This document shows, one piece after another, positions 148 through 45,612 of a DNA stretch of 64,000 nt; the stretch's first letter is position 1, and each line of letters begins with the position of its first letter. A program made the translations under genes and the position numbers. The notes below the pieces were generated by a model. It made no database searches, had not been told where the DNA came from, and saw nothing but the letters and a program-made list of their open reading frames with translations. Origin of the DNA: a virus (taxonomy: Duplodnaviria; Caudoviricetes); the IMG/VR virus record IMGVR_UViG_3300036766_002286; one strand, given 5' to 3'.

Positions 148-579
148 ATGACTACTAGAACCACCAACCCGACCGGAAAGACCAACCTAGCAAACGCAAC
201 TCTAGCCGGTGCTGATATAGCGAATGCTATTTTATCCAAGGTCTGTTTAGCGAATGTAAATTTAGCTAATGCACAGCTCTATGGCACAGATTTTTCATAT
301 TCAGATTTATCCCATGCAGATTTTAGTGGCGCGTGCCTGTCGATTGGGTTTTCCGGTGGTATGTATTCTGATACTAGATTTGTAGGCTGTAATCTCATTG
401 GAGCCGACCTGGCGCAGATGGATCTCAGTGGGGTAAATTTTACGAATGCTAATCTAACTAATGCGGATCTCAGCGGCGCCCACCTATGGAAAACGAACTT
501 TACTAATGCCATTTTGACTAATGTTGTTCTATCTGAAGAACAAAAGAAAGGGTGTATTGGTCTTAGCGAGTCCATATAG
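148..579 (+). CDS. Pentapeptide repeat protein (CIG C-cap)
   Basis: A(D/N)Lxx repeats; ends VLSEEQKKGCIG; GGGGAG SD precedes ATG 148 (ORF track start 58 overlaps the upstream gene). Confidence 0.9.
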   Translation: MTTRTTNPTGKTNLANATLAGADIANAILSKVCLANVNLANAQLYGTDFSYSDLSHADFSGACLSIGFSGGMYSDTRFVGCNLIGADLAQMDLSGVNFTNANLTNADLSGAHLWKTNFTNAILTNVVLSEEQKKGCIGLSESI

Positions 580-814
580 TAAGAGCAATGCATAATAATA
601 TAAAATATACTAAAGCACAACAGACTTTCACCATATAAACACAACCATTAATACATCACATTGTTGGCATACCATTTATGGTATATTTGTAACTAATGTC
701 TTCGTTATGAATTCCCCTTTTATCATAATTTAAGCTTTTTATACAACCTTCTGGCGCATTTATAAAGGTCAGGCACAATATTACAAATGTCCCATACTAC
801 ACACAGGTATTTTA

Positions 815-2449
815 ATGTATCCTTATAAAAAGCAATCTATTTTAAATCTTAAAGCTGTATACTATAAACTAGTCATTTTTATACTCAGTACCTTCATTAT
901 TATTGGATCCTCTAGTCTTACAGCAGCAAGCGCCTCAGCAAGTTATAGTGGCCACGGCTACACTGCAGTCATTATCACTCGCGGTCGTCCTCAAGTTCGC
1001 ACCGTAGACGCTATTGGCGCTAATATTTTAGCCCATAAGGGATATAATGTAGCAAAAACTAAAATCTATACTCTCACAGATAACGAAATATCTCCTCCAA
1101 GTGAAAATGTCACACCAACCATTCCAGACGTCGCACCATCCGGCACCCTTGTTGCTGTTGTAGATACCGGCATTGATGACACTCATCCATGGCTTGCAAA
1201 TCGTGTAGTTTTAGGGCATTCTTTTGTTGAATATACGGATCCAGAAACTGAATGGCGTGACGAGTATGGACATGGCACACATATAGCCGGAATAATTCGC
1301 CAAGGCTACCCAGCAGTTCAGCTTATGTCCGTTAGAGTTATAAACGCATTTGGCTCTGGTACTGATGACGCTATCGCCGCTGGAATTCTTTGGGCTGTTG
1401 ATAATAATGCCAAGGTTATAAATTTAAGTCTTGGCAGTACTCAAGATTCTTATGCGATATCAAGTGCTATAACTTATGCCAAAGACCACGACATAGTGAT
1501 AGTGGCCGCAGCCGGCAATTCCGCTGAAGACGGTTCTCCAATTATGTATCCGGCTTCTGATATTAATGTACTCGCCGTAGCTGCCGTCGATGAGAATCAC
1601 GAGGTCACCTATTTCTCGAATCGAGGAACCTATGTAGATGTTGCAGCCCTAGGTTGGCAGGTTATTTCAGCTAAAATGGGCGGAGGTTTTATATCTGAAA
1701 GCGGTACTTCCATGGCCGCACCAAAAGTTGCAGCTTTAGCAGCTAATTTACGCGCACTTCACGGAACTTGGAGCGAAGCCACTGTTCGTGCCCATATCGA
1801 AGCTACAAGTACAGATCTAGCCCCCCCGGGTCCAGACTCTTCTTATGGTTTTGGAGAAATCAATTTCGTAACTGCACTAAGTACGACAGATCCTGTATCT
1901 GTCTTCGGTATGGTTCCAGCTCCAGATGAGTTATCTTTAAGTGTTGTTCCTTTTATAGGCGGAGTTACAGTCACACCATCCGTAGACGTATTAAATATGC
2001 AAATCACAGAAGCATCAACCGGCATCCCTCTTTATTCCTTAAGCTACCCTCTAGGCAGCAATGGTGATTATCGAGTGAGTTTGGCAGCTGCAACTGAGGT
2101 ACTAGTTTTCGGATCTGACCCTAGCGGCACTCCATATACCCCAGTTCGACTAATTCTCAACCCTCTTCAAGCCCGCCCGTTACGAATTACAGGAACGCTA
2201 TCAGGTTCAACGGTGAAAATACTAGCCACAGCTTATCCTACCAAAGACATCAAACGCATGGTTGTTTACATAATATATGCTTCAGGTCATTCTAAAGCAC
2301 TATCTTCTCAAAAACTCCAAAGTGTAGGTAAAACAACTATAATTATAAAAACTGTTAAAGACCAATATAAAAGCACCGGTTATCAAGCATGTCTTATCGA
2401 CTTTTCTGGACTACCCTTTAATTGCACAAAAATTATTCACACAAGGTAA
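815..2449 (+). CDS. Secreted subtilisin-like serine protease (S8)
   Basis: Catalytic triad motifs VAVVDTGID, HGTHIAG, GTSMAAP; AAAGN oxyanion motif; N-terminal hydrophobic segment. Confidence 0.93.
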   Translation: MYPYKKQSILNLKAVYYKLVIFILSTFIIIGSSSLTAASASASYSGHGYTAVIITRGRPQVRTVDAIGANILAHKGYNVAKTKIYTLTDNEISPPSENVTPTIPDVAPSGTLVAVVDTGIDDTHPWLANRVVLGHSFVEYTDPETEWRDEYGHGTHIAGIIRQGYPAVQLMSVRVINAFGSGTDDAIAAGILWAVDNNAKVINLSLGSTQDSYAISSAITYAKDHDIVIVAAAGNSAEDGSPIMYPASDINVLAVAAVDENHEVTYFSNRGTYVDVAALGWQVISAKMGGGFISESGTSMAAPKVAALAANLRALHGTWSEATVRAHIEATSTDLAPPGPDSSYGFGEINFVTALSTTDPVSVFGMVPAPDELSLSVVPFIGGVTVTPSVDVLNMQITEASTGIPLYSLSYPLGSNGDYRVSLAAATEVLVFGSDPSGTPYTPVRLILNPLQARPLRITGTLSGSTVKILATAYPTKDIKRMVVYIIYASGHSKALSSQKLQSVGKTTIIIKTVKDQYKSTGYQACLIDFSGLPFNCTKIIHTR

Positions 2450-2615
2450 CTTTCAATAGCGTTATGTTTGACCCAATATTTATGCATCAAACACAAGCAC
2501 TCATACACGCTTTGGTTAGTTCTGCATCAACCTGTCCCACCTCCCAGCAATAAATCAGCGTCACTGCATTCAGATTCAAGCCCTTACGGTATGTTACTAG
2601 TCCTCTAGGAGATTT

Positions 2616-3218
2616 ATGCCGCCAACTAATTTATCACGTACTGAAGTACTAAAGAAAATAAGTAATCATGAAAGCTTGTCTGGTTATAATCTGTCTGGTA
2701 TAGACCTTAGTCAGCTTCAATTGCCTGTGGTGGATTTTTCTAGAAGTAATCTAACCGGAGCTTTATTTTCTATGACAAATTTTAAGCAAGCTAATTTCGA
2801 AGGCGCAAATCTTAGAAGATCCAATTTCAGTCACACCAGTCTAGAAAGCGCTAATTTTGCCCACGCTGATTTGTATGGTGCTGATTTTGACAAGGCATTT
2901 TTGAACGGGGCGAATCTTAATTATGCTAACCTTAAGGGTGCTAGCATGGACGACGTATCATGCGTGCGAGCAAATTTTAGTTTTGCTAATCTTAGAGGAG
3001 CGTATCTAGTCGGCGCCAACTGCGAAAAAGCTATTTTCATCAAAGCCGATCTAACTACAGCGATGCTCGACCATACTAATCTCACTAATGCCAATCTTTC
3101 TCAAGCTATACTAGAAATAACGAGCTCCGCCAAAACCATCTTCCGCAATACTCTCATGCCAGATAATATTCTATGCAACGGAGATATATCTAGTTATGAC
3201 TATAATCACTTGAAGTGA
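2616..3218 (+). CDS. Pentapeptide repeat protein (LTR-type N-cap, MPD C-cap)
   Basis: LSRTEVLKKI start, pentapeptide core, TLMPDN end; AGGAG SD. Confidence 0.92.
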   Translation: MPPTNLSRTEVLKKISNHESLSGYNLSGIDLSQLQLPVVDFSRSNLTGALFSMTNFKQANFEGANLRRSNFSHTSLESANFAHADLYGADFDKAFLNGANLNYANLKGASMDDVSCVRANFSFANLRGAYLVGANCEKAIFIKADLTTAMLDHTNLTNANLSQAILEITSSAKTIFRNTLMPDNILCNGDISSYDYNHLK

Positions 3219-3273
3219 TAGTAGTACACTTTCGCACCTATAGTAAGGTACTCGACCCCCATCTAGGAGACTT

Positions 3274-3879
3274 ATGACCGCAGACAAACTTTCACGTCAC
3301 ACAGTTATAGAGAAACTAGACAACCATGACTGCCTAGCTGGCTATGATTTGACCGGTATTGACCTAAGCGAGCGCTGTATAGACTATGCAGATTTTTCCA
3401 ATTGCACTCTGACTGGAGCTTTATTTTCTATGACAACCTTTAAACATGTAGTTTTTAAAGGTGCAGATTTAACTAATATAAACTTCCGTGGAGCTGTTCT
3501 AGAAGCCGCAGATTTCAGTTTTTCTAAGTTAACATGCACAGATTTTCATGAAGCAAATCTAAACGGAGTTGATTTTAGCCACGCCCGTTTAGATTATGCC
3601 CGTATGGATTATGTAAAACTTAGATATAGTAATTTGAGTTATACTAACCTGACAGATACTAATCTAAAATATGCCGACTTATCACACGCAGTACTGGTTG
3701 GCGCCAATCTGGCAGATACTAATTTCTACAGAGCTAATCTAACAAGAGCTAATCTACGCGATGCACACATAACGCCTAATACAGTTTTTCATATGGTTGA
3801 TTTTACAGGCTGTATTATGCCCAATAATACCATATATAATCAAGCAGACTTCGGCGAGGACATAAATCTCTCTATGTAG
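3274..3879 (+). CDS. Pentapeptide repeat protein, paralog of 2616..3218
   Basis: Shares LTGALFSMT; ends CIMPNN; AGGAG SD. Confidence 0.92.
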   Translation: MTADKLSRHTVIEKLDNHDCLAGYDLTGIDLSERCIDYADFSNCTLTGALFSMTTFKHVVFKGADLTNINFRGAVLEAADFSFSKLTCTDFHEANLNGVDFSHARLDYARMDYVKLRYSNLSYTNLTDTNLKYADLSHAVLVGANLADTNFYRANLTRANLRDAHITPNTVFHMVDFTGCIMPNNTIYNQADFGEDINLSM

Positions 3880-3904: not shown

Positions 3905-4447
3905 TTAGAACAAATGTTTTGTAGCAGCCGTAATTTCATCCACATCGCGCAAAGCGTCTCGCAGTTTATTAAAAGTATCATAACTTTCTCTAAATTTCGG
4001 ACCTAATGTGCCTTTCAGGCTACCAGGATCTAGGGTAAGCGCTTCCATTAATTCTTCCATGTTTATATTCTGTTCCTGATCAGCTCTAGCATTATTAAAG
4101 GCTTCGCTTGCCTTAGCTGCAATGGCTGTGTACCTGTTTATTTCTAACAAAGCTTCATCTGCTGTTCGAATAGTTTTACTTTTTTTCAAAATATCATGGT
4201 TCGTTAAAGGAAATAAATGTATAGTATTTGCTGTATGAATACTAAGAACATCTGCAGCGACCACTGCCGCTGTCATGTCTAATTCGGCCTGCTTTCTTTT
4301 TTCTTCCTCTAAGTCACTTCCCATTGACTTTATAAAAGCAAGTCTGCTAGCTATTGCTATACCACTGACTTTATTACACTCAGCAAGGAGTTCGTCAGTT
4401 TTTTTACTTGCTGCCTCTCTTTCTTTCTGTTTTTTAAACATACCCAT
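3905..4447 (-). CDS. Hypothetical helical protein (KHLF family)
   Basis: Paralog of 4533..5051: HLFP, SKTIRTAxEALL and DVDEITxATKHLF shared; GGAG SD. Confidence 0.8.
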   Translation of the reverse strand: MGMFKKQKEREAASKKTDELLAECNKVSGIAIASRLAFIKSMGSDLEEEKRKQAELDMTAAVVAADVLSIHTANTIHLFPLTNHDILKKSKTIRTADEALLEINRYTAIAAKASEAFNNARADQEQNINMEELMEALTLDPGSLKGTLGPKFRESYDTFNKLRDALRDVDEITAATKHLF

Positions 4448-4532: not shown

Positions 4533-5051
4533 TTAAAATAAATGTTTGGTGGCTAATGTAATTTCATCCACGTCACACATAGCATAAAGAAATGCTGTTT
4601 TGTCTATTCTAAGTTTCTCAACTTTTTCCACAACTTCAGGCGAGTTTTCGTCTAAACCATCTCTTATCGCAGTCGTTACCGCCACCGCACTTGAAGTAGA
4701 TATTTCAGACAACTCGGCTGCGATTCTTAGATAGGAATTTATCGCGAGCAGGGCTTCCTCAGCTGTTCTAATAGTTTTACTTTCTTTCAAAATATTCAAA
4801 TTTTCTATAGGAAACAAATGTCTCGTTGCATCTACGTGCAGTGACAGAGCATCTACGGCCATACTATATATCTCCCAATTTCGCTCATATTCTATGGCTC
4901 TGGCATACTCGATGTCCGTTCCGACCGATTTTTCCCATTCTAGCTTACTTTTCCGTTCGAGTATAGAAGTGCTATCTATAACATCATTTAATCTCCAAAA
5001 CTCAAGGTCCGCCTCTCTTTTTTCTTTCGTCTTTTTAAATATATTCGCCAT
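4533..5051 (-). CDS. Hypothetical helical protein (KHLF family)
   Basis: Paralog of 3905..4447; GGAGG SD. Confidence 0.8.
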   Translation of the reverse strand: MANIFKKTKEKREADLEFWRLNDVIDSTSILERKSKLEWEKSVGTDIEYARAIEYERNWEIYSMAVDALSLHVDATRHLFPIENLNILKESKTIRTAEEALLAINSYLRIAAELSEISTSSAVAVTTAIRDGLDENSPEVVEKVEKLRIDKTAFLYAMCDVDEITLATKHLF

Positions 5052-5225: not shown

Positions 5226-5636
5226 ATGAAAAAGGAAACTAAGAAAACCAAGAAAACTAAGTCTACTAAAGTATCCAAACCACACCCCCAAATTCGCTCA
5301 TCAGATGTTATATCCTATGAAGATTGTCTAGGTCTTCCTATGGATCTTGTACGCACCGATTCTCAAAAAGACAAAGATTTTGAAAGCGCAGACCTTTCAG
5401 ACCTAGATTTGTCAGACATCGATTTCAGAGGCGCAAAGTTTATGAATGCCAATCTATACAACTCAGATCTATCTGGTTGCGATTTCACCAAAGCTGATCT
5501 CAGATATGCAGATCTTAACTATACTAATTTGACTGGCGCAAATTTAACTAAAGCTAACTTGTCTTTTGCTGATTTAGAGAATATTACTTTAACTGGGGCT
5601 CTTCTAACCGGCGTAGTAGGGATGAATAAGCAATAA
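5226..5636 (+). CDS. Pentapeptide repeat protein with Lys-rich N-terminus
   Basis: [11 protein letters not shown] leader then ADLS/ANLT repeats; AAGGAG SD. Confidence 0.9.
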
Positions 5637-5652
5637 ATTTAAATTCATGATC

Positions 5653-5682
5653 TTGACGTGCCACATCAAGCCTTTATAGTAT
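5653..5682 (+). promoter_or_regulatory. Putative sigma70-type promoter (example of the recurring CTTG...AGTA motif)
   Basis: TTGACG, then TATAGT/TAGTAT 16-18 bp downstream, ahead of the AAGGAG SD of 5704. Confidence 0.5.
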
Positions 5683-5703
5683 CCCATATCCAAGGAGCAC
5701 TAA

Positions 5704-6441
5704 ATGGAACCAATAAACTACATCGACAAAAATGGTAATCAGGCAATTTTAGATCCGTCTACGTCCTGGAGAAATATAAATCTCAATGGTGCTGATTTTT
5801 CGAGAGCAGATTTGACCGCCGCAGATTTCACATACGGGGATCTTACTAGTGTAGATTTTTCTAAAGCAAAACTCACCTTCGCCATTTTTACTGAAAGCGA
5901 CCTAACTGGTGCAAATTTATATATGGCTGTTCTTACTAATGCACACATGTTCGGAGCCGATATGTCAAAAGCCAATCTTACGAATGCACTTCTAATAGGA
6001 GCTAATCTACACATGGCCACTCTCTCCCAGGCTGATTTGACTGACGCTAATCTAAGCACAGCAGATCTATCGCAAGCACAGTTGGTTCATGCTAATTTAA
6101 CCAATGCCTGTTTATCTAAAACAATCCTAAATAGGACCATTTTGTATTCAGCAAATCTGACAAACGCGAATTTAAGTTTTGCCGATTTCACTGACGCAGA
6201 ACTTAATTTAGCCAATCTCACGGGGGCAAACCTTAAAAAAACAAACTTTGAAGGAGCCGACCTCACCGGGGCAATCTTTGATGAAAACGCCCTAGTTGGG
6301 CTGAATTTAACAAACGCAACCATGCCTAACGGATCAAAGTATATCAGTGCCCTAACCTCAGAAACCGCTGCCGAAAAATATAATCGGGAAGCAGACGAAC
6401 TTTTAGCAACATTTGGTCTGTCTCCTAAAGATAATAAATGA
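5704..6441 (+). CDS. Pentapeptide repeat protein (YID N-cap, MPNG C-cap)
   Basis: INYIDKNG start, long repeat core, ATMPNG plus helical tail. Confidence 0.93.
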   Translation: MEPINYIDKNGNQAILDPSTSWRNINLNGADFSRADLTAADFTYGDLTSVDFSKAKLTFAIFTESDLTGANLYMAVLTNAHMFGADMSKANLTNALLIGANLHMATLSQADLTDANLSTADLSQAQLVHANLTNACLSKTILNRTILYSANLTNANLSFADFTDAELNLANLTGANLKKTNFEGADLTGAIFDENALVGLNLTNATMPNGSKYISALTSETAAEKYNREADELLATFGLSPKDNK

Positions 6442-6469: not shown

Positions 6470-8035
6470 TTACAAACTGACCGCAGCAGTTAGCAAGTCA
6501 CCTAAATTTCCGCTCCAGTTTTCTCCAAGCGTACGAAAACACTCCCAATGCGCTATATTGCTCCCAAGCTGTTCTACTATCAACTCCCCAAGATTTGAAT
6601 TAATTGATTGTTTTTTGTCGTCTAGTAACCATATACTGCGTTCTATGAGATTCCATGGGAGCAGTTTTAACAGGTCATTGCTTAAAGGCGCTCCTATTAT
6701 ACTTGCATCACGGTATTCCCCGCTTACATTTTTACCTTTTAACTGCAATACATGATTATCAACCACTTCACTGACCATTTTTGCAAGTAACTTAGGTGCA
6801 ACGGTAGCGAACCTCCAACATGCTATAGGCATTGTATGATTAGCATCCCATAAACAGGAAATAATATATGCATCCCCTGTTTCAGCAACGCTGCGCACAA
6901 CAGCGTCTCGCCCCATACACCTATATGCTCTAGCTAGTAGTTGCTTGTCTGCTAGTAAGGTCTTATTTTTAAGTAAACCACTTAAAGTATCTTGTACAAA
7001 CCAGCTTTCTTGTGGAAAGCTGCGTCCCTCAATAGAAAATAGTAGTTTTTCTATTTGCTTTTTTGAGGCTTTACTAGCTTCTTTGTTTCGGGAAGAAAGC
7101 GTTAAAGACAGATTATAGTTAGGTATTATTGTAAGTAAACTATACAAGGCATCTGGCATATTCCCATAATGCGCGCTATTAATAAACAAATATTCTTGTG
7201 AGATTTTTACACTCAGCATATCAATAATCTCATCAGAACAGCCGTCTAGTTTAATAATATCTACTAACAAATTAACAATATTTCTAAAAGGGGAGTTGTA
7301 TGAATAGCTATCTACATTTTCACCAGATTCTGCTTTTAGACGTGCGCGATAAATCCATCCCATAATATAATCCACTAACTCAAACAATTCGCTAGGCGCA
7401 ACAGATCTTATATCTATTAACTCAACTACATCAAATATATTATTAGTATCAAGTAATTCCACAAATTCTAGCAAACGCTTATCTGCTTTATTTAAAGCCT
7501 CCACAATCCCCTTTTTCTCTTTCAAGGCTATTCGCGCACTACCGAATAAGATTAGACGCACGGCACTAGCGTCTTCTTTGTTAAGATGCTTTATACAAAC
7601 TGTAATAATATCAATGTCAGATATCTCGCTATTTAGGACAGCTGTTGCAAGTAACTTGGTAGGTTTGTCTTTCATTTGTCGTACTATTGCATCTAAAATA
7701 TTCGCGTCATTTCGACCTAGGTTAGCTAACTGAGCTAACACCGCCGAACGTTTCTCGGTAATTAGAAGCTCAAATTTATCAGGAACATCATGCCTCTGCA
7801 GGTAAGCAATTCTAATTTCGCCCTTGTTCATCGCTCTAGCTTGCTGTAAGCATGTTTCTGGTAGATGGGGCGCTTGTAACATCTTAACTAAAGTAGTTGT
7901 ATCATGCACGGAGCTAGCCATATACCACACTTTTTCAGCCACAGTACAACTATTCTCATTTAGAATATTGCCACTCGCAGCTATAAAAAGTGCTTCTAGC
8001 ACCCCTGTTTTGGTCATTTTTCTAGAGTGGTACAT
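6470..8035 (-). CDS. Hypothetical alpha-helical protein (~500-aa family with WExFxxL...G.L..LL C-terminus)
   Basis: 521-aa ORF; shares RIAYL, EKRS, KPTKLLATA and the C-terminal motif with 12982..14457. Confidence 0.8.
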   Translation of the reverse strand: MYHSRKMTKTGVLEALFIAASGNILNENSCTVAEKVWYMASSVHDTTTLVKMLQAPHLPETCLQQARAMNKGEIRIAYLQRHDVPDKFELLITEKRSAVLAQLANLGRNDANILDAIVRQMKDKPTKLLATAVLNSEISDIDIITVCIKHLNKEDASAVRLILFGSARIALKEKKGIVEALNKADKRLLEFVELLDTNNIFDVVELIDIRSVAPSELFELVDYIMGWIYRARLKAESGENVDSYSYNSPFRNIVNLLVDIIKLDGCSDEIIDMLSVKISQEYLFINSAHYGNMPDALYSLLTIIPNYNLSLTLSSRNKEASKASKKQIEKLLFSIEGRSFPQESWFVQDTLSGLLKNKTLLADKQLLARAYRCMGRDAVVRSVAETGDAYIISCLWDANHTMPIACWRFATVAPKLLAKMVSEVVDNHVLQLKGKNVSGEYRDASIIGAPLSNDLLKLLPWNLIERSIWLLDDKKQSINSNLGELIVEQLGSNIAHWECFRTLGENWSGNLGDLLTAAVSL

Positions 8036-8653: not shown

Positions 8654-8782
8654 AGCCGGAATTATAAGAATATAACAGCAATTTTATCCAACAGAATTTT
8701 ATACTCTAAAGCAAGGTTTGTGTCATACTTTTCCGCCCCAACAGTATCTTGTAGTATAAGTCTATTAAAGGAGACCTGTTTT

Positions 8783-8974: not shown

Positions 8975-8976
8975 CT

Positions 8977-16472: not shown

Positions 16473-16482
16473 CAGCTTGTAT

Positions 16483-28786: not shown

Positions 28787-28847
28787 AATAAATCTCCTTT
28801 AAATAATTACACTATACTATCCACGCCTAACTCTGAAAAACAAGACT

Positions 28848-29723: not shown

Positions 29724-29747
29724 AGGAATCCCCACAGTTATATTAAA

Positions 29748-32284: not shown

Positions 32285-32288
32285 CTGC

Positions 32289-35455: not shown

Positions 35456-35470
35456 CACAAGACCACTATT

Positions 35471-36806: not shown

Positions 36807-36832
36807 CTATAATAGATACTTAAAGGCATTAA

Positions 36833-37690
36833 ATGAATAAAAAAGATATTGAATACATCGACAGCCAGGGTTCGCCGGCTGTTTTACGATATGGCGAGTC
36901 GTGGCACGGCACACCACTATCTAATGTAGATTTGTCTTATGCAGATATGTCACACACTGATTTATCCAATTTAGATTTTCATGGCACAAATTTTACAAAC
37001 GTAAATCTATCTTTTACAAAGCTGGAAAACTGTGATTTAAGCCAAACAAAACTTGATGGTGCTTGTTTTAATTATGCTGATCTCAGCTCCGCTAATTTAA
37101 CTTTGGCTTCAAGTGCCTTAGAATCTCCTATACAAGCCCAGGGTGCTCGTTTCATCTGTGCAAATTTATCTGGTTGCCAGCTGCCCGCGTCCTATATGCA
37201 CAAAGCCCGCCTATCTAGAGCAAATTTGACGAACACAGACCTGTCATACGCGGATCTCACTTCAGTATTTATGCTAGGCACAGCCCTACAAAAGGCAAAT
37301 CTCACTGCAGCTAACCTTCGTGAAGCTGTGCTGGGACGCAGTAATTTCACGCAAGCTAATCTAACAGGTGCAAATTTAACAGGCACTGAGCTTTCTGACA
37401 CAAACTTTACTGGGGCAATCATGCATAGAGTAAACTTAAGCGCCGCATATTTCTGTAGAACAATTATGCAAGGCACAGACCTGCAGGGCTCCAATATATC
37501 GAAAACACACCTTTTTAACACAGATATGACTAAAGCGAACCTTAGAGGTGTAGATTTCACCCAATGTATTTTTACAGGTAGTATGCAATACGCCAATCTT
37601 TATGGAGCCATTTTTGACCCCGACCACATATTCGAAGGCGACTCTTACTTCCGAGCGACTTTACCTGATGGTACTTTATATATACCATAA
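36833..37690 (+). CDS. Long pentapeptide repeat protein (YID N-cap, FEGxxY..LPDG C-cap)
   Basis: IEYIDSQG; DPDHIFEGDSYFRATLPDG. Confidence 0.93.
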   Translation: MNKKDIEYIDSQGSPAVLRYGESWHGTPLSNVDLSYADMSHTDLSNLDFHGTNFTNVNLSFTKLENCDLSQTKLDGACFNYADLSSANLTLASSALESPIQAQGARFICANLSGCQLPASYMHKARLSRANLTNTDLSYADLTSVFMLGTALQKANLTAANLREAVLGRSNFTQANLTGANLTGTELSDTNFTGAIMHRVNLSAAYFCRTIMQGTDLQGSNISKTHLFNTDMTKANLRGVDFTQCIFTGSMQYANLYGAIFDPDHIFEGDSYFRATLPDGTLYIP

Positions 37691-37717
37691 ACCCATATTC
37701 TAATAGTATCTTCACTC

Positions 37718-37746
37718 TTGCTACTATACGTGCGCCCTAATAGTAT
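37718..37746 (+). promoter_or_regulatory. Putative promoter inside the PRP array
   Basis: TTGCTA-17 bp-TAGTAT upstream of GGAGG SD and GTG 37772. Confidence 0.5.
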
Positions 37747-37771
37747 ATTATGTATAATATTTGGAGGCATT

Positions 37772-38380
37772 GTGCACACAAGCAAAGAACAGTTAACTAG
37801 AGAGCAAGTTCTCGAAAAAGTTTCAAACCACGACAGCTTCGCTCACACAGATCTGTCTGGAATGGATCTGTCTAGAATGAATTTGTCAGGGTTAAATTTT
37901 AATCACGCCGGTTTGTATGCAGCAAACCTGACCGGGGCTGATTTCACACAAGCAAGTCTGCTCGGCGCCACCCTAAGTGCGTCCCACATGCAGGGTGCTA
38001 GGTTCACACATGCAGACTTAACTTCCGCCTATTTAATAGCAGCGATAGCCCAGGGCACTGATTTCAGTTTTGCTAATTTACAAGACACCTATTTAATTAC
38101 CACCACTTTTGATAAAGCAAATTTTTATAAAGCCGACATGTCTAGAGCTAGAGTGCGCGGAGCGACTTTTCGTGGAGCGAATCTTGAAAATGCTAATTTA
38201 ACAAATACAGATCTCATCGAAGTTATATCTAATGCTAAATTTCACGCACGCCTTAATCAAGTTATACCGGACATGCTTATATCTTATACTGATTTAGCTT
38301 TTACTGACCTAAGTTTTGCAGACTTTACCAAAGCGAACCTAACGAACACAATAGCCCCAGACGGGTCTGTTCACCTATGA
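37772..38380 (+). CDS. Pentapeptide repeat protein (LTREQVL N-cap)
   Basis: GGAGG SD + GTG; IAPDGSVHL. Confidence 0.92.
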   Translation: MHTSKEQLTREQVLEKVSNHDSFAHTDLSGMDLSRMNLSGLNFNHAGLYAANLTGADFTQASLLGATLSASHMQGARFTHADLTSAYLIAAIAQGTDFSFANLQDTYLITTTFDKANFYKADMSRARVRGATFRGANLENANLTNTDLIEVISNAKFHARLNQVIPDMLISYTDLAFTDLSFADFTKANLTNTIAPDGSVHL

Positions 38381-39072
38381 GTACTTATAAAAATCTCACA
38401 AGGCAAAATATAATAGATAATGTTGCTAATAATGTAGATATGAAGTTTTGGCATATTCGGGGCATTGATTTGTCTTATGCTGATTTGACTAAAGCTCGTT
38501 TTTTTGCTGTTTCATTCGAGAATGTTAATCTTAAAGGGGCGAGCTTGTCCGGAGCTGACTTGCGAGGTGCTACATTAAACGATATTAATTTGTCCTACGC
38601 AAACTTAACCAGAGCAGATCTGTTCGGTGCTTCACTTAAACAAGCCAACCTCCAAGGTATTAACGCTATAAGTCATGGAAAGTATTTTACCGACATGCGC
38701 AACACCAAGCTTCAGGGGGCAAACTTTCATGGCGCACACTTGCAAGGCGTACAACTAATCCTAGCTAAAGCAGAGGGTGCTAATTTCTCATTCGCTAACT
38801 TGACTTCTGCAAATATGACCAGTATTAATCTGACGTCGGCAGATTTAACTAACACGAATATGACTAAAGTTACTCTTGTTCAAGCAACTGCGATAGATGC
38901 TATTTTAAAAAATACTATTATGACAGACGCCAATCTCACAGAATTAAGAGTTAACGGCAACTACCCTCAAACATTTAAAACAACGACAGACCCAGAAGCC
39001 TATGAATTACTACTATCTGACACCATTCTCACCAATGCCATTATGCCCAATGGTGTCATATATGCAAGTTAG
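38377..39072 (+). CDS. Pentapeptide repeat protein, paralog of 35471..36154
   Basis: ATGA overlap; NAISHGKYFT and VNGNYPQTFKTTTDPEAY loops; MPNG. Confidence 0.92.
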   Translation: MSTYKNLTRQNIIDNVANNVDMKFWHIRGIDLSYADLTKARFFAVSFENVNLKGASLSGADLRGATLNDINLSYANLTRADLFGASLKQANLQGINAISHGKYFTDMRNTKLQGANFHGAHLQGVQLILAKAEGANFSFANLTSANMTSINLTSADLTNTNMTKVTLVQATAIDAILKNTIMTDANLTELRVNGNYPQTFKTTTDPEAYELLLSDTILTNAIMPNGVIYAS

Positions 39073-39143
39073 CTATAATATACATGTCAAGCACCACAAT
39101 CCTAAATTCGCCACAATAGTACTATTAAGTTAAGGAGAACCCT

Positions 39144-39959
39144 ATGAGAAAAAATATTAATTTCATTGACGGCTGGGGGAAACCAGCAACCCTTGTTTGG
39201 GGTGGGGACTGGAGTCACGTTCGCGGCAACTCAGCTGATTTTTCTTATGCCGACCTGTCTGGTGCGGATCTAACACCTCTCGGCGACTTGTGTGGCGCTA
39301 ATTTCCGCGGAGCAAACCTATCTAATACGACCCGCACTCATACTATAGATATTTTCTCTCTCATAGCCTACGATGCTGATTTCACTCAAGCCAATTTATC
39401 GAAAGCGTCATATCCTACGAGTTTTCCAGGCTTTCCCGGTGCGTATATGGTGCGATCTAAATTTAATGGAGCAAACCTTACCGAAATAAATTTAAGTAAC
39501 GCTGACCTTACTAGTGCTGATCTCAGTGCTGCAGACTTTACTAAAGCTAATCTCACATCAACTGTTTTAGTAGGAACAGTTTGCGGCTCAACCAATTTTT
39601 CTCAAGCAAATCTTACCAATGCTGATCTTCATGGTGCAGACTTATCTTGTGCAAATTTCACAGGCGCAATTATGATTGGTGCCAATCTCGGTCGTGTAGA
39701 TACCTCCACTGACTTTACTGACGCAGATCTCTCATATGCAGATTTCTCTCACGCTTTTCTAGATGAAGCAAATTTCACTAAAGCAAATTTATTTAAAGCA
39801 AATTTTTCTCATGCTAGGAAACTTAACAAAGAGGAGGACTGGTCAGGAGCTAGCTTTCGTGGGGCTAACCTAACCGAAGCCATTTTCGACCCCGACCACA
39901 AATTTGAAGGTGACGCTTATATTGGTGCCACCCTGCCAGACGGTACTTTGTACCGGTAA
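39144..39959 (+). CDS. Pentapeptide repeat protein (FID N-cap, LPDG C-cap)
   Basis: AAGGAG SD; ends HKFEGDAYIGATLPDGTLYR. Confidence 0.93.
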   Translation: MRKNINFIDGWGKPATLVWGGDWSHVRGNSADFSYADLSGADLTPLGDLCGANFRGANLSNTTRTHTIDIFSLIAYDADFTQANLSKASYPTSFPGFPGAYMVRSKFNGANLTEINLSNADLTSADLSAADFTKANLTSTVLVGTVCGSTNFSQANLTNADLHGADLSCANFTGAIMIGANLGRVDTSTDFTDADLSYADFSHAFLDEANFTKANLFKANFSHARKLNKEEDWSGASFRGANLTEAIFDPDHKFEGDAYIGATLPDGTLYR

Positions 39960-40032
39960 GTTATAAAATAACACCCGCACCTTGCTATTAGTAATACAGC
40001 ATCTACAGTATAAATAAACCAAGGAGACCTCT

Positions 40033-40626
40033 GTGAGTAAACCTAATATAGAATATACTGATCGTAATGATAACGAACAACGTCTACAATGGGACAAGTC
40101 GTGGGCAGACCTCGATTTATGTGGCGCTAATTTTGCAGGCGCCGATCTCAAGGGTGCTAACTTCGCACATTGTGACTTACGTGGCGCTATTTTATACAAG
40201 GCTAATCTAGAGGGCGCTGATTTTCGTAGTGCTGCTATGGTCTCAGCTGACTTAAGTGAAGCTGTCTTAGCTGGCGCAGATCTCTCACATGCAGATCTAT
40301 CATACGCCAAGTTACCTGGAGCAAATCTAGAATCGGCTGATCTGCGTGACGCTAACCTTAATGAAGCTGACCTAAGTGAAGCTAATTTAGTTAATGTCAT
40401 GTTTCACGGCGCTGAATTGAAAAGAGCTAATCTAGCTAATACTAATTTAGAAGGTGCTAATTTTTATCAAGCAACTCTGTATAAGGCTAATCTAGAGGGC
40501 GCTGATTTGCTCGACACTGACTTTAGCGGAGCAACCTTATTTGGTGTGTTATTGTCTGTTCGGCAACGAAATGTATGTCTTGGACGGGACGATGGTATTT
40601 TCGGTGGAGAGACAGCGCATGAATAA
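40033..40626 (+). CDS. Pentapeptide repeat protein
   Basis: AAGGAG SD + GTG; LQWDKSWADLDLCGANF shared with 43663. Confidence 0.93.
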   Translation: MSKPNIEYTDRNDNEQRLQWDKSWADLDLCGANFAGADLKGANFAHCDLRGAILYKANLEGADFRSAAMVSADLSEAVLAGADLSHADLSYAKLPGANLESADLRDANLNEADLSEANLVNVMFHGAELKRANLANTNLEGANFYQATLYKANLEGADLLDTDFSGATLFGVLLSVRQRNVCLGRDDGIFGGETAHE

Positions 40627-41047
40627 GCCTAATATAAAATATATTGATCGCAATGGTAACCCTCAGGAATTATCATGGGGCGAATCATGGGTAGGCATAG
40701 ATTTGGCTGGCGCTAACCTACAGGCCACTGATCTGCGGCAAGCTGAGCTGCCAAAGGCCAACCTGCAAGACGCAAATTTAAGTGGAGCAGATTTGAGACG
40801 TGCTGATTTATGTGATGCTAGTTTGCAAGGCGCTAACCTAGAGCGTGCTAATTTAGGTGGTGCTTACTTTTGGAGAGCTAATTTAAGTCACACCAATCTG
40901 CAACACACTAATTTACTAGGCGTTAATTTTGAAGATGCCAATTTAAGCCAAGCCGACTTTACAAATGCCGATCTGCAAGGTGTGACGCTTACTTTGCATC
41001 AACAAAAAGAGTGCATAGGATATAGTACAACTTCGAGAGACGCATGA
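40619..41047 (+). CDS. Pentapeptide repeat protein (YID N-cap, CIG C-cap)
   Basis: GGAG SD + ATG 40619; PNIKYIDRNG; QQKECIGY. Confidence 0.93.
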   Translation: MNKPNIKYIDRNGNPQELSWGESWVGIDLAGANLQATDLRQAELPKANLQDANLSGADLRRADLCDASLQGANLERANLGGAYFWRANLSHTNLQHTNLLGVNFEDANLSQADFTNADLQGVTLTLHQQKECIGYSTTSRDA

Positions 41048-41138
41048 TGCATAAGCCTAATGTAAAATATATTGATAGTCTAGGTAACCCGCAGGAACTT
41101 GTCTGGGGCGACTCATGGGTAGGCATAGATTTGGCGGG
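40779..41138 (+). repeat. Exact 360-bp direct repeat, copy 1
   Basis: Identical by manual alignment to 44123..44482 (offset 3344). Confidence 0.93.
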
Positions 41139-41484
41139 CGCTAATTTAACTAGCGCCAATCTGGTTGGTGCTAATTTAACTGGTGCTAATTTAACTAACG
41201 CCAATTTGACAGATGCAGCGCTGATTAGTGCAATCCTTCATGATGCAGATTTAAGTGACGCAAATCTACGCAAGGCTTGTCTAGTGCGTGCTACACTGCG
41301 TAATGCTAATCTGACGCGAGCAGATTTACGGGGCGCCACTTTAAATAGCACTAACTTATATGGTGCTGATTTAAGTGCCACTAATCTCACCAATGCTATT
41401 TTAACAGGCATAACCTTGTCAGAACAACAAAAAATCGCATGTATTGGTTATAATGAGTCAACTCCACAGCCAGCAGATATTTAA
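41044..41484 (+). CDS. Pentapeptide repeat protein (YID N-cap, CIG C-cap)
   Basis: ATGA overlap; KYIDSLG; LSEQQKIACIGY. Confidence 0.93.
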   Translation: MMHKPNVKYIDSLGNPQELVWGDSWVGIDLAGANLTSANLVGANLTGANLTNANLTDAALISAILHDADLSDANLRKACLVRATLRNANLTRADLRGATLNSTNLYGADLSATNLTNAILTGITLSEQQKIACIGYNESTPQPADI

Positions 41485-41612
41485 GTGTATAAGTCTACTA
41501 TGAGATGCTATTGTCCACTTATTCATATTAACTACCAAACACCTACCACATAAAGTCTCTTACATTTCGCTATATCCCATGAATAATACCAGAACAACAA
41601 AGAAGAATAACC

Positions 41613-41720
41613 ATATTTAATAAATACGGCCCACAAACCAAATATATTAAGAATTTATTTTATGAAGTCCATAAATTAAACAAAGAGCAAATAACTGCTT
41701 TGCAAAGTTCTGTTGCTTAG
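41613..41720 (+). pseudogene. Truncated copy of gene 45691..46113
   Basis: ATA replaces ATG; FNKYGPQTKYIKNLFYEVHKLNKEQITALQSSVA-TAG aligns with FDKYGPQTKYIKRLLDEVYSLNQDQITDLQKSV. Confidence 0.75.
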
Positions 41721-41807
41721 GTCGAAACTATCTAAATACGCGTGATCCCCATCCTCTGACTTCATACCTGGTCTGCATTCAATATAATGTCTATAAGGTC
41801 TTATTTT

Positions 41808-42752
41808 TTATTTTGATTTTATATCCCAACCATCAGCTATAATACAGCCATTTAGATTTGCGCCTATAAAGTTAGCATCTCCTAGCCCAGCACCTCTTAA
41901 ATCAGCAAAACTCAAATCAGCATTACCAAAATCGACGTGGTTTAAGTAAGCATCATTAAGCTTGGCATAACTTAAATCAGCACCACTCAGATCACTGTCA
42001 CTTAAGTCAGCACTAGTCAAATTGGCATACCTTAAATTAGCGCAACTTAAATTAGACTGATACAACAGCACGCGGCTTAGATCTGTTTTGCTGAGATCCG
42101 CTCCACGCATATTGGTTTCACTTAGCTTAACGCCGCTCAAGTTAACTCCACCTAAATTGGCTTCAACTAAGTTGGCTCTACTTAAATCTACCTTGTCTAG
42201 CTTGGTGCCTTTACTTAAATCCACCCCACCTAAATAGGCTCCACTCAAGTCGACGCCAACCAAAATAGTTTGACTCAAGTCAGCGCCTTTAAAACTAACC
42301 TTACTTAAATTAGCACCGGTGAAATCGGCGGCATATAAATTGGCTCTAAATAAATTAGCGGCGAGTAAAGTAGCTCCATTAAGCTTGGCGTTAGTTAAAT
42401 CAGCATCGTGTAAAGTAGCTCCATTTAAAACAGCTTTACTTAAATTAGCACTGCTCAGATTAGTATTATTTAGATTAGTATTATTTAGATACGCACTATG
42501 TAAGTTAACCATATACATGCGAGCGTCCTCTAAGTTGGCCCCATTTATACTAGCACTAGATAAATCAGCGTTACGCAAATCAGTTTCAGATAGATCTGCT
42601 CCATCTAAACTAGCTCTGCTTAAGTCCGCACCATTTAAATTAGCACCACTTAAATTGGCTCTACGTAAATCTTTTACTTGTCCATCTAATACAAGTATTG
42701 CGTCTTTTCCATCACAATCAATGTGAGGTACTTCACGATGTTTAGTTGTCAT
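41808..42752 (-). CDS. Long pentapeptide repeat protein (GCIxxxGW C-cap)
   Basis: AGGAG SD + ATG 42752; PHIDCDG; GCIIADGW. Confidence 0.93.
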   Translation of the reverse strand: MTTKHREVPHIDCDGKDAILVLDGQVKDLRRANLSGANLNGADLSRASLDGADLSETDLRNADLSSASINGANLEDARMYMVNLHSAYLNNTNLNNTNLSSANLSKAVLNGATLHDADLTNAKLNGATLLAANLFRANLYAADFTGANLSKVSFKGADLSQTILVGVDLSGAYLGGVDLSKGTKLDKVDLSRANLVEANLGGVNLSGVKLSETNMRGADLSKTDLSRVLLYQSNLSCANLRYANLTSADLSDSDLSGADLSYAKLNDAYLNHVDFGNADLSFADLRGAGLGDANFIGANLNGCIIADGWDIKSK

Positions 42753-43140
42753 TGGTTTTCTCCTGTGCTTGCATAATCCATCCTTCTGTAAAAATACAGC
42801 CATCCCAATTTACCCCAGTTAGATCTGCGCCGTGCAAATTTGCGCCAGTCAAGTTAGCATTATTAAGGTCAGCACCATTCAAATTAGCATTAGTTAAATT
42901 GGCAAAACTCAGATCGGCGCTGCTTAAATTAGCGTCGTTTAATTTGACACCATACAGATAGGCATCTCTCAAGTCAGCTCCGCTTAAATTAGAGCCCCGC
43001 AGATCTTTAAATTCGCCACCCAATGTAAATATTGCATTTTTACCCTTACGATCAATATAGGGTATTTTATTAGATCTTGGCGTTATTACGAACTCTTTTT
43101 GATCGACCAGCTTTGATTCTTCCTGAGATTTATCACTCAT
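42742..43140 (-). CDS. Pentapeptide repeat protein (GCIxxxGW C-cap)
   Basis: AAGGAG SD + ATG 43140; PYIDRKG; GCIFTEGW. Confidence 0.92.
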   Translation of the reverse strand: MSDKSQEESKLVDQKEFVITPRSNKIPYIDRKGKNAIFTLGGEFKDLRGSNLSGADLRDAYLYGVKLNDANLSSADLSFANLTNANLNGADLNNANLTGANLHGADLTGVNWDGCIFTEGWIMQAQEKTNDN

Positions 43141-43203
43141 AAGTACTCCTTGCATCCAGTTGTATCTTACTATAGGCGCTTAAGTCGTCTACACAAATAA
43201 TAT

Positions 43204-43290
43204 ATGTTCAAAGCTGATTTTTCAGGCACTGTACTCCGAGCCGCTTATAATGAGGCTGCCTTACCAGATGGCACTTTGTATCAACAATAA
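43204..43290 (+). pseudogene. Orphan PRP C-cap remnant
   Basis: FKADFSG...AYNEAALPDGTLYQQ-TAA, like the ends of 39144 and 44848. Confidence 0.6.
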
Positions 43291-43378
43291 GTCTCTTACT
43301 GTCATGATGTATCTCTAAAATTTCTTATCTTGATAGCAATTAGCCCCAATAGTATCATTAAACTAAGGAGCTAGAATA

Positions 43379-43660
43379 ATGAACCAAACACCCGTTCCGT
43401 CAGTTTCTACGATAGTTTCTACGATCAGAGCTATGATTGTTCATTATGAAATGGACTTTCTGGTGCGCAGGCAGAGTGGGAAAATGAGTCAAAAACAAAT
43501 AGACGACGACATCGAAATTATCGAAGATGCCAATAAGGCGATGGAAACGTTACTAAAGGACGATCTACGCTTGCGTGAGTACATCACCGAACTAGAAGAA
43601 GAAAACCGCCAACTTCGTTCCAGCCAGCCAGGACAGTTCTATACGCCGAGTGGAGAATAA
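43379..43660 (+). CDS. Small coiled-coil protein (possibly a distant TxAIR member)
   Basis: TTGATA-17-TATCAT and AAGGAG upstream; C-terminal heptads. Confidence 0.75.
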   Translation: MNQTPVPSVSTIVSTIRAMIVHYEMDFLVRRQSGKMSQKQIDDDIEIIEDANKAMETLLKDDLRLREYITELEEENRQLRSSQPGQFYTPSGE

Positions 43661-43662
43661 CG

Positions 43663-44391
43663 ATGACCAAACCAAATGTTAAATACAGAGATCGTAATGG
43701 TAACGAGCAACATCTACAATGGGACAAGTCGTGGGCAGACCTCGATTTATGTGGCGCTAATTTTGCAGGTTGCGATCTCATCGGTGCTAACTTCGCCGGC
43801 GCTGACTTACGTGGTGCTATTTTGTACAAGGCTAATCTGCGTGACGCTGATTTCCGTAGTGCTTCTATGATTTGTGCTGACCTAAGTGAAGCTATCTTAA
43901 CTGGCACTGATTTTAGCAATGCGGATTTATCACACGCAAAGCTGCGGGGAGCAAATCTAGAATCGGCTGTTCTAAGGGGCGCTAACCTTAATGAAGCTGA
44001 CCTACGTGAAGCTAATCTAATTAATGTCGCCTTTGCGGGCGCAGAATTGAAAAAAGCTAACTTAAGTAATACTAGTTTGGAAGGGGCTAATTTTTATGGG
44101 GCAACTCTGTATTACGCTAATCTAAGTGGAGCAGATTTGAGACGTGCTGATTTATGTGATGCTAGTTTGCAAGGCGCTAACCTAGAGCGTGCTAATTTAG
44201 GTGGTGCTTACTTTTGGAGAGCTAATTTAAGTCACACCAATCTGCAACACACTAATTTACTAGGCGTTAATTTTGAAGATGCCAATTTAAGCCAAGCCGA
44301 CTTTACAAATGCCGATCTGCAAGGTGTGACGCTTACTTTGCATCAACAAAAAGAGTGCATAGGATATAGTACAACTTCGAGAGACGCATGA
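43663..44391 (+). CDS. Chimeric pentapeptide repeat protein
   Basis: N-part homologous to 40033 gene; C-part identical to 40619 gene. Confidence 0.92.
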   Translation: MTKPNVKYRDRNGNEQHLQWDKSWADLDLCGANFAGCDLIGANFAGADLRGAILYKANLRDADFRSASMICADLSEAILTGTDFSNADLSHAKLRGANLESAVLRGANLNEADLREANLINVAFAGAELKKANLSNTSLEGANFYGATLYYANLSGADLRRADLCDASLQGANLERANLGGAYFWRANLSHTNLQHTNLLGVNFEDANLSQADFTNADLQGVTLTLHQQKECIGYSTTSRDA

Positions 44392-44482
44392 TGCATAAGC
44401 CTAATGTAAAATATATTGATAGTCTAGGTAACCCGCAGGAACTTGTCTGGGGCGACTCATGGGTAGGCATAGATTTGGCGGG
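44123..44482 (+). repeat. Exact 360-bp direct repeat, copy 2
   Basis: Identical to 40779..41138. Confidence 0.93.
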
Positions 44483-44855
44483 AGCCGATTTAAGCGGTGT
44501 AGAGTTAGCCGGCGCTAACTTTTCTAATGCTAATTTGAGACGCGCTAATATGCGACGTACTAACTTAGGCGCAGCAAATCTAAGCGCTGCTTGTTTGGTT
44601 GATTCCGACCTAATTAAAGCTAATTTATGCAGCGCAAATCTGAAAGACGCTAATTTGCGTAGCGCTGATTTAAATCACGCGGATTTAAGTAACACTGACT
44701 TAAGTAATGCTAACTTACGTTTCACTAATTTACGACGTGCTGATTTGCAGGGTGCTGATTTATCAGGCGCCGAACTACGAGGAGTTGAGCTATCTAGCCG
44801 CCAGAAAAAGGCGTGCATTGGTCTTAGTGAAACTGTACAGTCTTCTTATGAGTAG
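44388..44855 (+). CDS. Pentapeptide repeat protein (N-cap identical to 41044)
   Basis: MMHKPNVKYIDSLG...; different core; RQKKACIG. Confidence 0.92.
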   Translation: MMHKPNVKYIDSLGNPQELVWGDSWVGIDLAGADLSGVELAGANFSNANLRRANMRRTNLGAANLSAACLVDSDLIKANLCSANLKDANLRSADLNHADLSNTDLSNANLRFTNLRRADLQGADLSGAELRGVELSSRQKKACIGLSETVQSSYE

Positions 44856-45612
44856 ATCGAATCTTAAATATATTGACCAAGACGGCCACCCACAAGAATT
44901 AAAGTGGGGAGAAAGATGGTCAGAATTTGCCCTGGCTGAGGCTAATTTATCTAATTCCGACTTGTCTGGCGCAGATCTCACTAACGTATGTTTAGATAAA
45001 TCAAATTTAACTAACGCCAATTTATCAGGCATAACCGCCACTTCAGAAGTATGTATGCAAGAAGCAAATCTTGAGGGAGCCAATCTTTCTAAGGCATTTC
45101 TTCCTGGAGCTTATTTGACACGCTCAAATTTCTCTTATGCTAATCTTACTTCCATAGAGCTGTCTAATGCAGATCTTACAGGCGTTAAGTTACTAAGAAC
45201 AGACCTAACCGGAGCAAATCTTTCAGGTGCTATCATGGTAGGCTCCCAGGCTTTGCAAGCTATTTTTACTAAAGCCGACCTGATAGAGACAGACCTGTAC
45301 GGATCCGAACTGGGCAATTCCAAATTTATAGGTGCTAATTTATCTCGCGCCAATTTATCTAGAGCAGAACTGTATGATGCAGATTTTTCTGGCGCAGATC
45401 TAACAGATGCTAGGTTTGTAAATACTAGTGTACATGGAACAAATTTCACTAAAGCAAATCTTTTAGGCGTGGATTTTTCCACCACCCAACATCTAGAACT
45501 ATGCTGTATGCAGTACGCTAATCTCACTGGCGCCCGCTTTCCGGAAGACCACGTATTTGAAGGCAACGCTTATATTGGTGCTACTTTACCAGACGGTACT
45601 TTGTACCGGTAA
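44848..45612 (+). CDS. Pentapeptide repeat protein (YID N-cap, LPDG C-cap)
   Basis: ATG 44848 overlaps the upstream stop; LKYIDQDG; FEGNAYIGATLPDGTLYR. Confidence 0.92.
   Translation: MSRSNLKYIDQDGHPQELKWGERWSEFALAEANLSNSDLSGADLTNVCLDKSNLTNANLSGITATSEVCMQEANLEGANLSKAFLPGAYLTRSNFSYANLTSIELSNADLTGVKLLRTDLTGANLSGAIMVGSQALQAIFTKADLIETDLYGSELGNSKFIGANLSRANLSRAELYDADFSGADLTDARFVNTSVHGTNFTKANLLGVDFSTTQHLELCCMQYANLTGARFPEDHVFEGNAYIGATLPDGTLYR

Follow-up and report, generated by a model that had tools for sequence, protein, structure and literature searches.

What role could account for several dozen genes of one repeat-protein family standing side by side on a single stretch of DNA? The question is raised by a sequence of 64,000 nucleotides (nt) filed as viral (Duplodnaviria; Caudoviricetes) in IMG/VR under record IMGVR_UViG_3300036766_002286, which at its full length we call the window, and in which genes for stand-alone pentapeptide-repeat proteins (PRPs) crowd the first 45,612 positions. 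A preliminary description of positions 148-45612, made from the letters and ORF translations without database searches, had seen there a gene accordion acting as a diversified protein repertoire. The reading that we prefer, tentatively and with slightly less than even confidence, is that the array is a tandemly amplified, lineage-specific family of stand-alone cytoplasmic PRPs that would serve as a repertoire of binding or blocking surfaces.

A dense array of pentapeptide-repeat genes

A scan of all open reading frames (ORFs) for pentapeptide periodicity, followed by a Pfam scan, revealed matches to PF00805 and PF13599 (Pentapeptide_4) in 44 of 44 candidate ORFs (best E 4.6e-96). For PF00805 the E-value was 0.001 or lower in all 44, and the first member scored 115 bits against a gathering cut-off of 20.2. 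Membership of the PF00805 superfamily calls for at least eight contiguous pentapeptides above the gathering score, and the proteins, with 8-55 repeat units each, belong to it. Forty-three of the intact ORFs lie within 58-45612 and one at 62492-62920; phmmer searches with the 44 proteins as queries against every stop-to-stop frame added only two fragments and an edge stub, and 2-3 of the resulting 47 loci are broken. PRP coding sequence sums to 25,263 nt, a total that includes a few over-extended ORF starts and amounts to 55% of positions 1-45612 and approximately 39-40% of the window. The longest same-strand run comprises 14 PRP genes (33084-41484). The Pfam scan of the 44 ORFs found no families beyond PRP-type ones, and a scan in windows of 19 amino acids (aa) found no transmembrane- or signal-like segment, save in over-extended N-termini. 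Because the PRPs have no hydrophobic segment, whereas neighbouring proteases and an FN3 protein carry signal-like N-termini, the PRPs are most likely cytoplasmic.

The preliminary description had counted by hand 48 PRP loci (40 intact, 1 edge-cut, 4 disrupted and 3 stubs); its total was close, as we find 43 intact genes and two fragments in the same span, but fewer loci are disrupted than it supposed. Its estimate that PRP genes make up roughly 40% of the window agrees with the summed coding length, and the operon-like runs of up to 14 genes and the absence of fused domains and signal peptides that it had reported were confirmed by the gene coordinates, the Pfam scan and the hydrophobicity windows. 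The recurrences that it had noticed at 62.5 and 64 kilobases (kb) are real, corresponding to the gene at 62492-62920 and a stub at 63876-63998, and it had guessed correctly that the family extends past the window: 12 further PRP ORFs occupy the 9.2 kb upstream, as read from a Logan contig of the same sequencing run. In the next 10 kb upstream, gene calls alone give a same-strand run of 21 small genes (57-263 aa), nine of them confirmed by sequence. With this upstream continuation the whole PRP-rich tract would span approximately 62 kb and hold approximately 67 genes. The PRP loci of the window are as follows (the N-terminal cap classes are described below).

58-579 (+): single PRP gene, 173 aa (PF00805 E 9.5e-34)
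2616-3879 (+): two adjoining PRP genes with the helix-type N-cap (class B), mutual nearest paralogues at 41% (Pfam, phmmer, paralogue comparison)
5226-6441 (+): two PRP genes, 136 and 245 aa (Pfam, phmmer)
8189-9387 (+): two PRP genes, 154 and 155 aa, both basic, pI 8.4 and 9.4 (Pfam, charge)
10881-11210 (+): short PRP gene, 109 aa, with the hairpin-type N-cap (class A) (Pfam, cap alignment)
15639-17010 (-): two PRP genes, 277 and 175 aa (Pfam, phmmer)
17201-19195 (+): three-gene PRP run plus a 62-aa stub at 17872-18060 (Pfam, phmmer; 18071-18649 modelled)
23101-27065 (+): six-gene PRP run with 4- or 8-nt overlaps (Pfam, junctions)
27089-29735 (-): four intact PRP genes and fragments 27089-27340 and 27365-27568, directly downstream of response-regulator, HEAT and GT2 genes on the same strand (Pfam, phmmer)
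33084-41484 (+): 14-gene PRP run, including four tandem copies approximately 425 bp apart at 33.7-35.5 kb (repeat family D8; 41044-41484 modelled)
41808-43155 (-): two PRP genes, 331 and 137 aa (Pfam, phmmer)
43663-45612 (+): three PRP genes, a diverged duplicate of 40033-41484, the last gene likely starting at 44848 (repeat families D7, D10, D11)
62492-62920 (+): outlying class A PRP gene, 142 aa (Pfam, cap alignment)
63876-63998 (-): PRP stub cut by the window edge (phmmer E 3.2e-08)

Within runs, the junctions are mostly 4-nt (ATGA) or 8-nt stop/start overlaps, an arrangement that by its sequence indicates translational coupling. Shine-Dalgarno sequences of the AAGGAG type and a -10-like element, [TA]A[TCA]AGT, precede run starts and many single genes; the latter was found 3-50 nt upstream of 24 of 53 starts, compared with 8.8 +/- 2.8 for random windows (maximum 19 in 1,000 trials). 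A combined promoter, TTG-N19-21-TAnAGT, was not enriched (14 versus 11 +/- 3.4), and the enrichment is confined to the -10-like element. A few of these elements lie near enough to the starts to suggest leaderless or short-leader mRNAs.

The array is unusual in its density. In a PF00805 survey of 301 sampled Actinomycetota genomes, a tally that includes the unpublished G051 and G123 (used for no other result), at least one match was present in 138; in the richest genomes, G200 and G187 (1.8 Mb, 70% G+C (GC)), PRP ORFs stood singly or in clusters of up to five in the seven regions inspected. No related array was detected with a class A PRP alignment in IMG/VR or in metagenome contigs of the Joint Genome Institute (JGI). 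Cyanobacterial PRP copies are mostly dispersed, rather than packed in coupled arrays that fill over half of the local DNA. A literature search, with incomplete coverage of subscription journals, returned no account of comparable PRP gene arrays, and the accessible part of a 2021 superfamily review, according to which PRPs are commonest in cyanobacteria, mentions none of this sort (PMC8145042). We regard the locus as a repeat-scaffold family that has expanded in one lineage; its exceptional density and the unplaced replicon on which it lies make it stand out.

Repeat, caps and predicted fold

The PRPs range from 62 to 331 aa, and 1,241 pooled repeat units yield the consensus A(N/D)(L/F)(S/T)(G/N). 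Thirty-two of the 44 proteins are acidic, five are basic and several are neutral. Two types of N-cap recur: a beta-hairpin with a motif like NIKYIDRNGNPQEL-W-SW (class A, 17 genes) and a helix with a motif like KLTR-QVL (class B, 15 genes). The C-caps are likewise of two types, a short helix (S-QK-CIGY) or a strand (MPDG-I-H), and N- and C-cap types are found in varying combinations, pointing to recombination among family members.

AlphaFold2 (AF2) models of one protein from each N-cap class, encoded at 41044-41484 (class A) and 18071-18649 (class B), reached mean predicted local distance difference test (pLDDT) values of 92.0 and 95.7, respectively. Both proteins are predicted to be regular right-handed quadrilateral beta-helices with one short strand per five residues, and the class A model includes a predicted C-terminal helix (127-132). 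Foldseek searches of the PDB with both models returned PRPs for all top matches (designed consensus solenoids, HetL, Rfr32, Rfr23 and Np275/276), and superposition on HetL gave a root-mean-square deviation of 0.8 A over 103 columns. Qnr, MfpA, AlbG and EfsQnr ranked lower, at 12-24% identity; the 192-aa class B model aligned to QnrB1 with TMq 0.70. MfpA and Qnr proteins form tail-to-tail homodimers through a C-terminal helix; a homodimer prediction for a class A PRP scored 0.05 and is not used as evidence either way.

A profile of the N-cap searched against a representative library found only one protein that shares the cap (P0373), the other matches being generic long PRPs (the last 15 profile columns are repeat). 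The fuller class A motif, Y-I-D-x-N-G-x-x-x-E-L-x-W-x-x-S-W (for example, at 41044-41130), recalls a unit, H-V-N-Y-I-D-x-x-G-x-V-H-E-L, that is repeated many times in the unrelated metagenomic proteins P0366 and P0375 and is perhaps a propeller- or lectin-type blade.

Comparison with named families

Two representative PRPs were scored against NCBIfam models, and every score fell below the family cut-off: 37.2 and 46.2 bits for Qnr (NF033086, cut-off 240), with 24-46 against 240-500 across all Qnr-family models; 29.6 and 38.4 for MfpA (NF000349, cut-off 360); 71.6 and 78.7 for HetL (NF047416, cut-off 260); and 60.7-71 for PipB/PipB2 (cut-offs 274 and 354). The top matches were HetL and Alr5209, both below cut-off. 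By these scores the array proteins would belong to the PRP superfamily and to none of its named families tested. PADLOC gave no match for three PRPs and seven neighbouring proteins.

The PRP-containing secreted effectors PipB, PipB2, NleL and SopA are among the partial NCBIfam and fold matches; unlike them, the array proteins score far below the cut-offs and have neither effector domains nor secretion signals. No secretion-system genes were found among the window proteins scanned (short ORFs lay outside the scan).

Evolution of the family

Almost all PRP genes have their nearest paralogue at 31-55% identity. For ten of the 44 that paralogue is immediately adjacent, and for two more nearly so, with approximately two expected by chance; tandem duplication is therefore indicated. 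A four-gene tandem set with a spacing of approximately 425 bp lies at 33.7-35.5 kb (D8), and the three-gene block at 40033-41484 has a diverged duplicate at 43663-45612 (D7, D10, D11). Two places in these runs share a patch of 360 identical base pairs.

40779-41138 (+): exact 360-bp repeat, copy 1, across a gene junction (identical to 44123-44482, unrelated flanks; double read depth)
44123-44482 (+): exact 360-bp repeat, copy 2, yielding the chimeric genes 43663-44391 and 44388-44855 (DNA comparison)

The patch records a recent conversion or recombination event.

Pairwise ratios of nonsynonymous to synonymous substitution (dN/dS, NG86) were 0.13-0.36, with dS at 0.66 for the closest pair and at least 1.15 for the others; because dS is mostly saturated, these estimates are rough. 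When six pairs were pooled and dN resolved by repeat position, its minimum was 0.11, at the core position i, and its maximum 0.71, at the outward position i+1 (dN/dS approximately 0.79). Conservation is thus seen at i-2 and i, which form the scaffold, and variability is greatest at the outward positions, i+1 above all. Together these patterns indicate an old family under overall purifying selection, with slow continuing duplication and recombination.

The dense, diversified family of stand-alone PRPs recognized in the preliminary description therefore stands, and local duplication, the three-gene block duplicate, the 360-bp patch and two surviving fragments agree with it. The rapid cycling of an accordion does not: nearest paralogues differ too much (31-55% identity, dS of 1 or more) and too few loci are broken (2-3 of 47).

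A proposed repertoire of binding surfaces

Each gene is predicted to encode a capped right-handed quadrilateral beta-helix of 2-14 coils, and the family has grown by local tandem and block duplication and by unequal recombination or gene conversion, shuffling two N-caps with two C-caps. In the reading that we favour, the array would supply rigid binding surfaces inside a cytoplasm, its own or that of a host. Each paralogue may have a macromolecular target of its own to bind or to block, and some of these targets could plausibly be nucleic-acid enzymes, for example type II topoisomerases. A parallel is offered by the ankyrin, LRR, TPR, F-box and MORN families that have expanded in symbionts and giant viruses (the 'accordion' model), of which the ankyrin, LRR and TPR families are thought to act as target-specific binders. 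Those expansions likewise comprise dozens of tandem binding-scaffold paralogues, arising by local duplication and recombination and presenting a variable surface on a conserved frame. They differ from the array in that the scaffold here is a PRP beta-helix and the copies are old rather than recently amplified.

Several points weigh against this proposal. No repeat-position class had a dN/dS above 1 in the six pooled pairs, a comparison by face position that the preliminary description had suggested as a check, and whole-gene values were only 0.13-0.36. The age of the paralogues gives no sign of a fast arms race, and variable outward faces are general to PRPs and alone are no proof of adaptive diversification. 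A run search for the stretch listed no RNA data, and, as the replicon may be a cell or a mobile element, claims about whose proteins would be targeted are limited.

The replicon and neighbouring genes

Two neighbouring features bear on the interpretation.

29748-32780 (-): response-regulator receiver, HEAT-repeat protein and multi-pass GT2 glycosyltransferase genes, leading into the minus-strand PRP run (Pfam)
46148-48589 (-): ParC/GyrA-like type IIA topoisomerase A subunit gene just past the array (PF00521 E 6.7e-145)

The three genes of the first are tightly spaced or overlapping, with the PRP run at 27574-29735 directly downstream; the GT2 protein is cellulose- or chitin-synthase-like. The ParC-like gene lies 536 bp past the array. 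In addition to the DNA_topoisoIV match (PF00521), its product passes the NF004044 cut-off (737.6 versus 654) and fails that of the GyrA equivalog (755 versus 902); no topoisomerase B subunit is encoded in the window. The protein is 100% identical to one on a 616,293-bp contig, and the replicon, from sediment, has 41% GC. DNA of the stretch was found in a single sediment-metagenome run, and no RNA run was listed.

The nearest ParC relatives, at 60-62% identity, lie on contigs of 66-71% GC, among genes of an ordinary chromosomal setting of actinobacterial type (RuvAB, pyruvate kinase, UvrA, SufB and PhoH). Because no PRPs were found near these closest relatives, the adjacency of PRP and topoisomerase genes is not conserved. 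A pattern-limited scan of GTDB representative genomes gave ParC relatives at only 37-49%, and closer genomes may exist; IMG/VR contained only GyrA-like relatives at 27-30%, and a phage collection no close match, with identity below 60% in every record and approximately 40% at best. A class A PRP alignment had no match in IMG/VR or JGI metagenome contigs, and a class A PRP protein search returned only partial-length matches in the repeat region, at 63% identity or less.

Among the products encoded in the window and its flank are Sec-type secreted proteins (proteases and the FN3 surface protein), a response regulator, a GT2 protein, an E1 dehydrogenase component with relatives in mixed phyla, and a MacB-type ABC transporter; no tRNA or Rfam family was detected in the window. 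The premise of a mobile element exposed to host defences has yet to be established. Our slight preference is for the scrambled chromosome of a cell from an unsampled low-GC lineage over a giant extrachromosomal element.

Further neighbours were noted in passing. An S8 subtilase (815-2449, +), a trypsin-like protease (48771-50081, -) and a 1026-aa FN3 protein (50171-53251, +) have signal-peptide-like N-termini, so that secreted or surface proteins apparently flank the PRP arrays. Three helical proteins of 491-521 aa (6470-8035, -; 11392-12909, +; 12982-14457, -), which have no Pfam, NCBIfam or PADLOC match, share the C-terminal motif W-E-x-F/Y-x-x-L-x-x-x-W/F-S/K-G-x-x-x-x-L-L and are apparently a second paralogue family; a homologue search with the 491-aa protein returned none beyond the source contig. 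The adjoining genes 3905-4447 (-) and 4533-5051 (-), of 180 and 172 aa, have DNA stretches that are 73-75% identical (D17, D19) and make another small tandem paralogue pair between PRP genes. PHROGs matches at 54890-55759 (-), 21933-22469 (+) and 45691-46113 (+), to a deoxynucleoside monophosphate (dNMP) kinase (phrog_139) and two families of unassigned function, constitute weak phage-like content amid genes that otherwise look cellular. Past the upstream 21-gene run, gene calls give a MacB-type ABC exporter set (ABC_tran, MacB_PCD and FtsX), in which two ORFs, of 84 and 174 aa, apparently make up a divided ATPase.

Alternative explanations

An unlikely alternative is that these are cell-intrinsic PRPs of the cyanobacterial kind, carried on the chromosome of an unsampled low-GC bacterium and acting as regulators or adaptors of its own processes, for example in HetL-like regulator binding or in envelope or polysaccharide deposition. 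Like the array proteins, the stand-alone cyanobacterial PRPs (HetL, Rfr32, Rfr23, Np275/276, Alr1298 and Alr5209) are Rfr beta-helices of small size, with caps and the canonical A(N/D)(L/F)XX repeat. Among them are the nearest structures, and HetL and Alr5209 lead the sub-cut-off NCBIfam matches. Such PRPs, too, have many paralogues per genome with functions that are mostly not known (PMC8145042). The genes around the array are cell-like, one PRP run lies directly downstream of response-regulator, HEAT and GT2 genes on the same strand, and some small high-GC Actinomycetota genomes are PRP-rich, although in clusters of only 1-5 ORFs in the regions inspected. On the other side, approximately 67 paralogues in 62 kb go far beyond any known regulatory need. 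The proteins fall short of the HetL (72-79 bits versus 260) and Alr5209 cut-offs and have other cap types, and the replicon is not cyanobacterial, having genes of actinobacterial type and, in the part seen, none for photosynthesis. No non-PRP gene forms a conserved partnership with the array, and the replicon lacks relatives in which conservation might show.

Slightly less probable is a giant mobile element or huge phage whose PRPs are DNA-mimic decoys that neutralize host DNA-binding defences, topoisomerases or toxins, with the ParC-like gene marking the theme. MfpA-, Qnr- and AlbG-type PRPs act on type II topoisomerases, and PDB entries for them are among the fold matches, QnrB1 aligning with the class B model as noted. 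The topoisomerase-directed PRPs (MfpA, Qnr, AlbG, McbG and EfsQnr) share with the array proteins their fold, their size (many array copies have 146-230 aa), a mostly acidic character (32 of 44) and a nearby topoisomerase A gene; many phages, and giant viruses too, have stand-alone PRPs in single copy, and some neighbours have PHROGs matches, including the dNMP kinase. Against this stand scores of 24-46 bits where Qnr families require 240-500, and 30-38 where MfpA requires 360, with structural identity of 12-24% and no Qnr-type loops seen; among the array proteins, the smaller class A copies alone are predicted to end in a short helix. The charge is not uniformly acidic (five basic and several neutral proteins), the closest ParC relatives have no PRP neighbours, and MfpA/Qnr-type families have one or few copies per genome rather than dozens. 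IMG/VR gave no match and the phage collection no close one, neither a capsid nor a terminase gene has come to notice in the genome to date, and the Sec-type secreted proteins, response regulator and ABC exporter suggest a cell.

The arms race with DNA-mimic decoys that the preliminary description had offered is, accordingly, not supported, in view of the failed family cut-offs, the mixed charge, the old paralogues and the lack of any position with dN/dS above 1, that is, of detectable positive selection; the structural models and charges that it had proposed to examine led to HetL, Rfr and consensus PRPs and to 32 acidic and 5 basic proteins. A DNA-mimic or anti-defence version keeps a low probability, with no specific support here. 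Its most specific form, in which the 616-kb low-GC replicon is a giant element or huge phage of an actinobacterial host and the PRP arrays are a counter-defence arsenal whose single beta-helices, by mimicking DNA or in other ways, block different host enzymes such as restriction or defence nucleases and type II topoisomerases, we consider improbable; if true, it would be a new class of multi-copy anti-defence locus.

We give a similarly low chance to largely neutral or selfish amplification, in which easily duplicating repeat genes persist without distinct functions. The tandem structure, chimeric genes, fragments and stub are what it would produce, and no partners or conserved orthologues were identified elsewhere (PRP protein search, IMG/VR and JGI contigs); yet 44 frames have stayed open with dS saturated or nearly so in every pair except the closest (0.66), dN/dS is 0.13-0.36, and caps, start codons, Shine-Dalgarno sites and coupled junctions have been kept.

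That a few PRP genes were inflated into an array by repeat mis-assembly is scarcely credible: the Logan contigs shown have a gap at 34004-40110 and a break at the 360-bp repeat, but the paralogues differ by 45-70% in protein sequence and so are not confusable by an assembler, depth is doubled only on the exact repeat, and two direct copies permit one order only. Logan contigs from one run, from which the assembly itself may derive, are identical to the window at every base of 26001-34004 and 40110-46000, with a steady depth of approximately 40x, and contigs 58.9 kb and 31.2 kb long show no difference from it. The 360-bp repeat has a depth of 72.7x, as expected for two copies. Mis-assembly, which the preliminary description had named as a reason to reject the array, is unlikely, the contig match and depth speaking against it outside 34004-40110.

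Implications

The replicon is unsampled, with actinobacterial-type genes at 41% GC and no relatives in the protein and contig collections searched, and its identity would be informative in itself. In the PRP superfamily, which is large and in which function is known for only a handful of members, the approximately 67 diverged, intact and coupled paralogues at this locus amount to a library, made by nature, in which a single rigid scaffold bears many different surfaces. The locus could show what the faces of PRPs recognize, and whether PRPs have expanded in the same way as the ankyrin and LRR families that serve in conflict between organisms.

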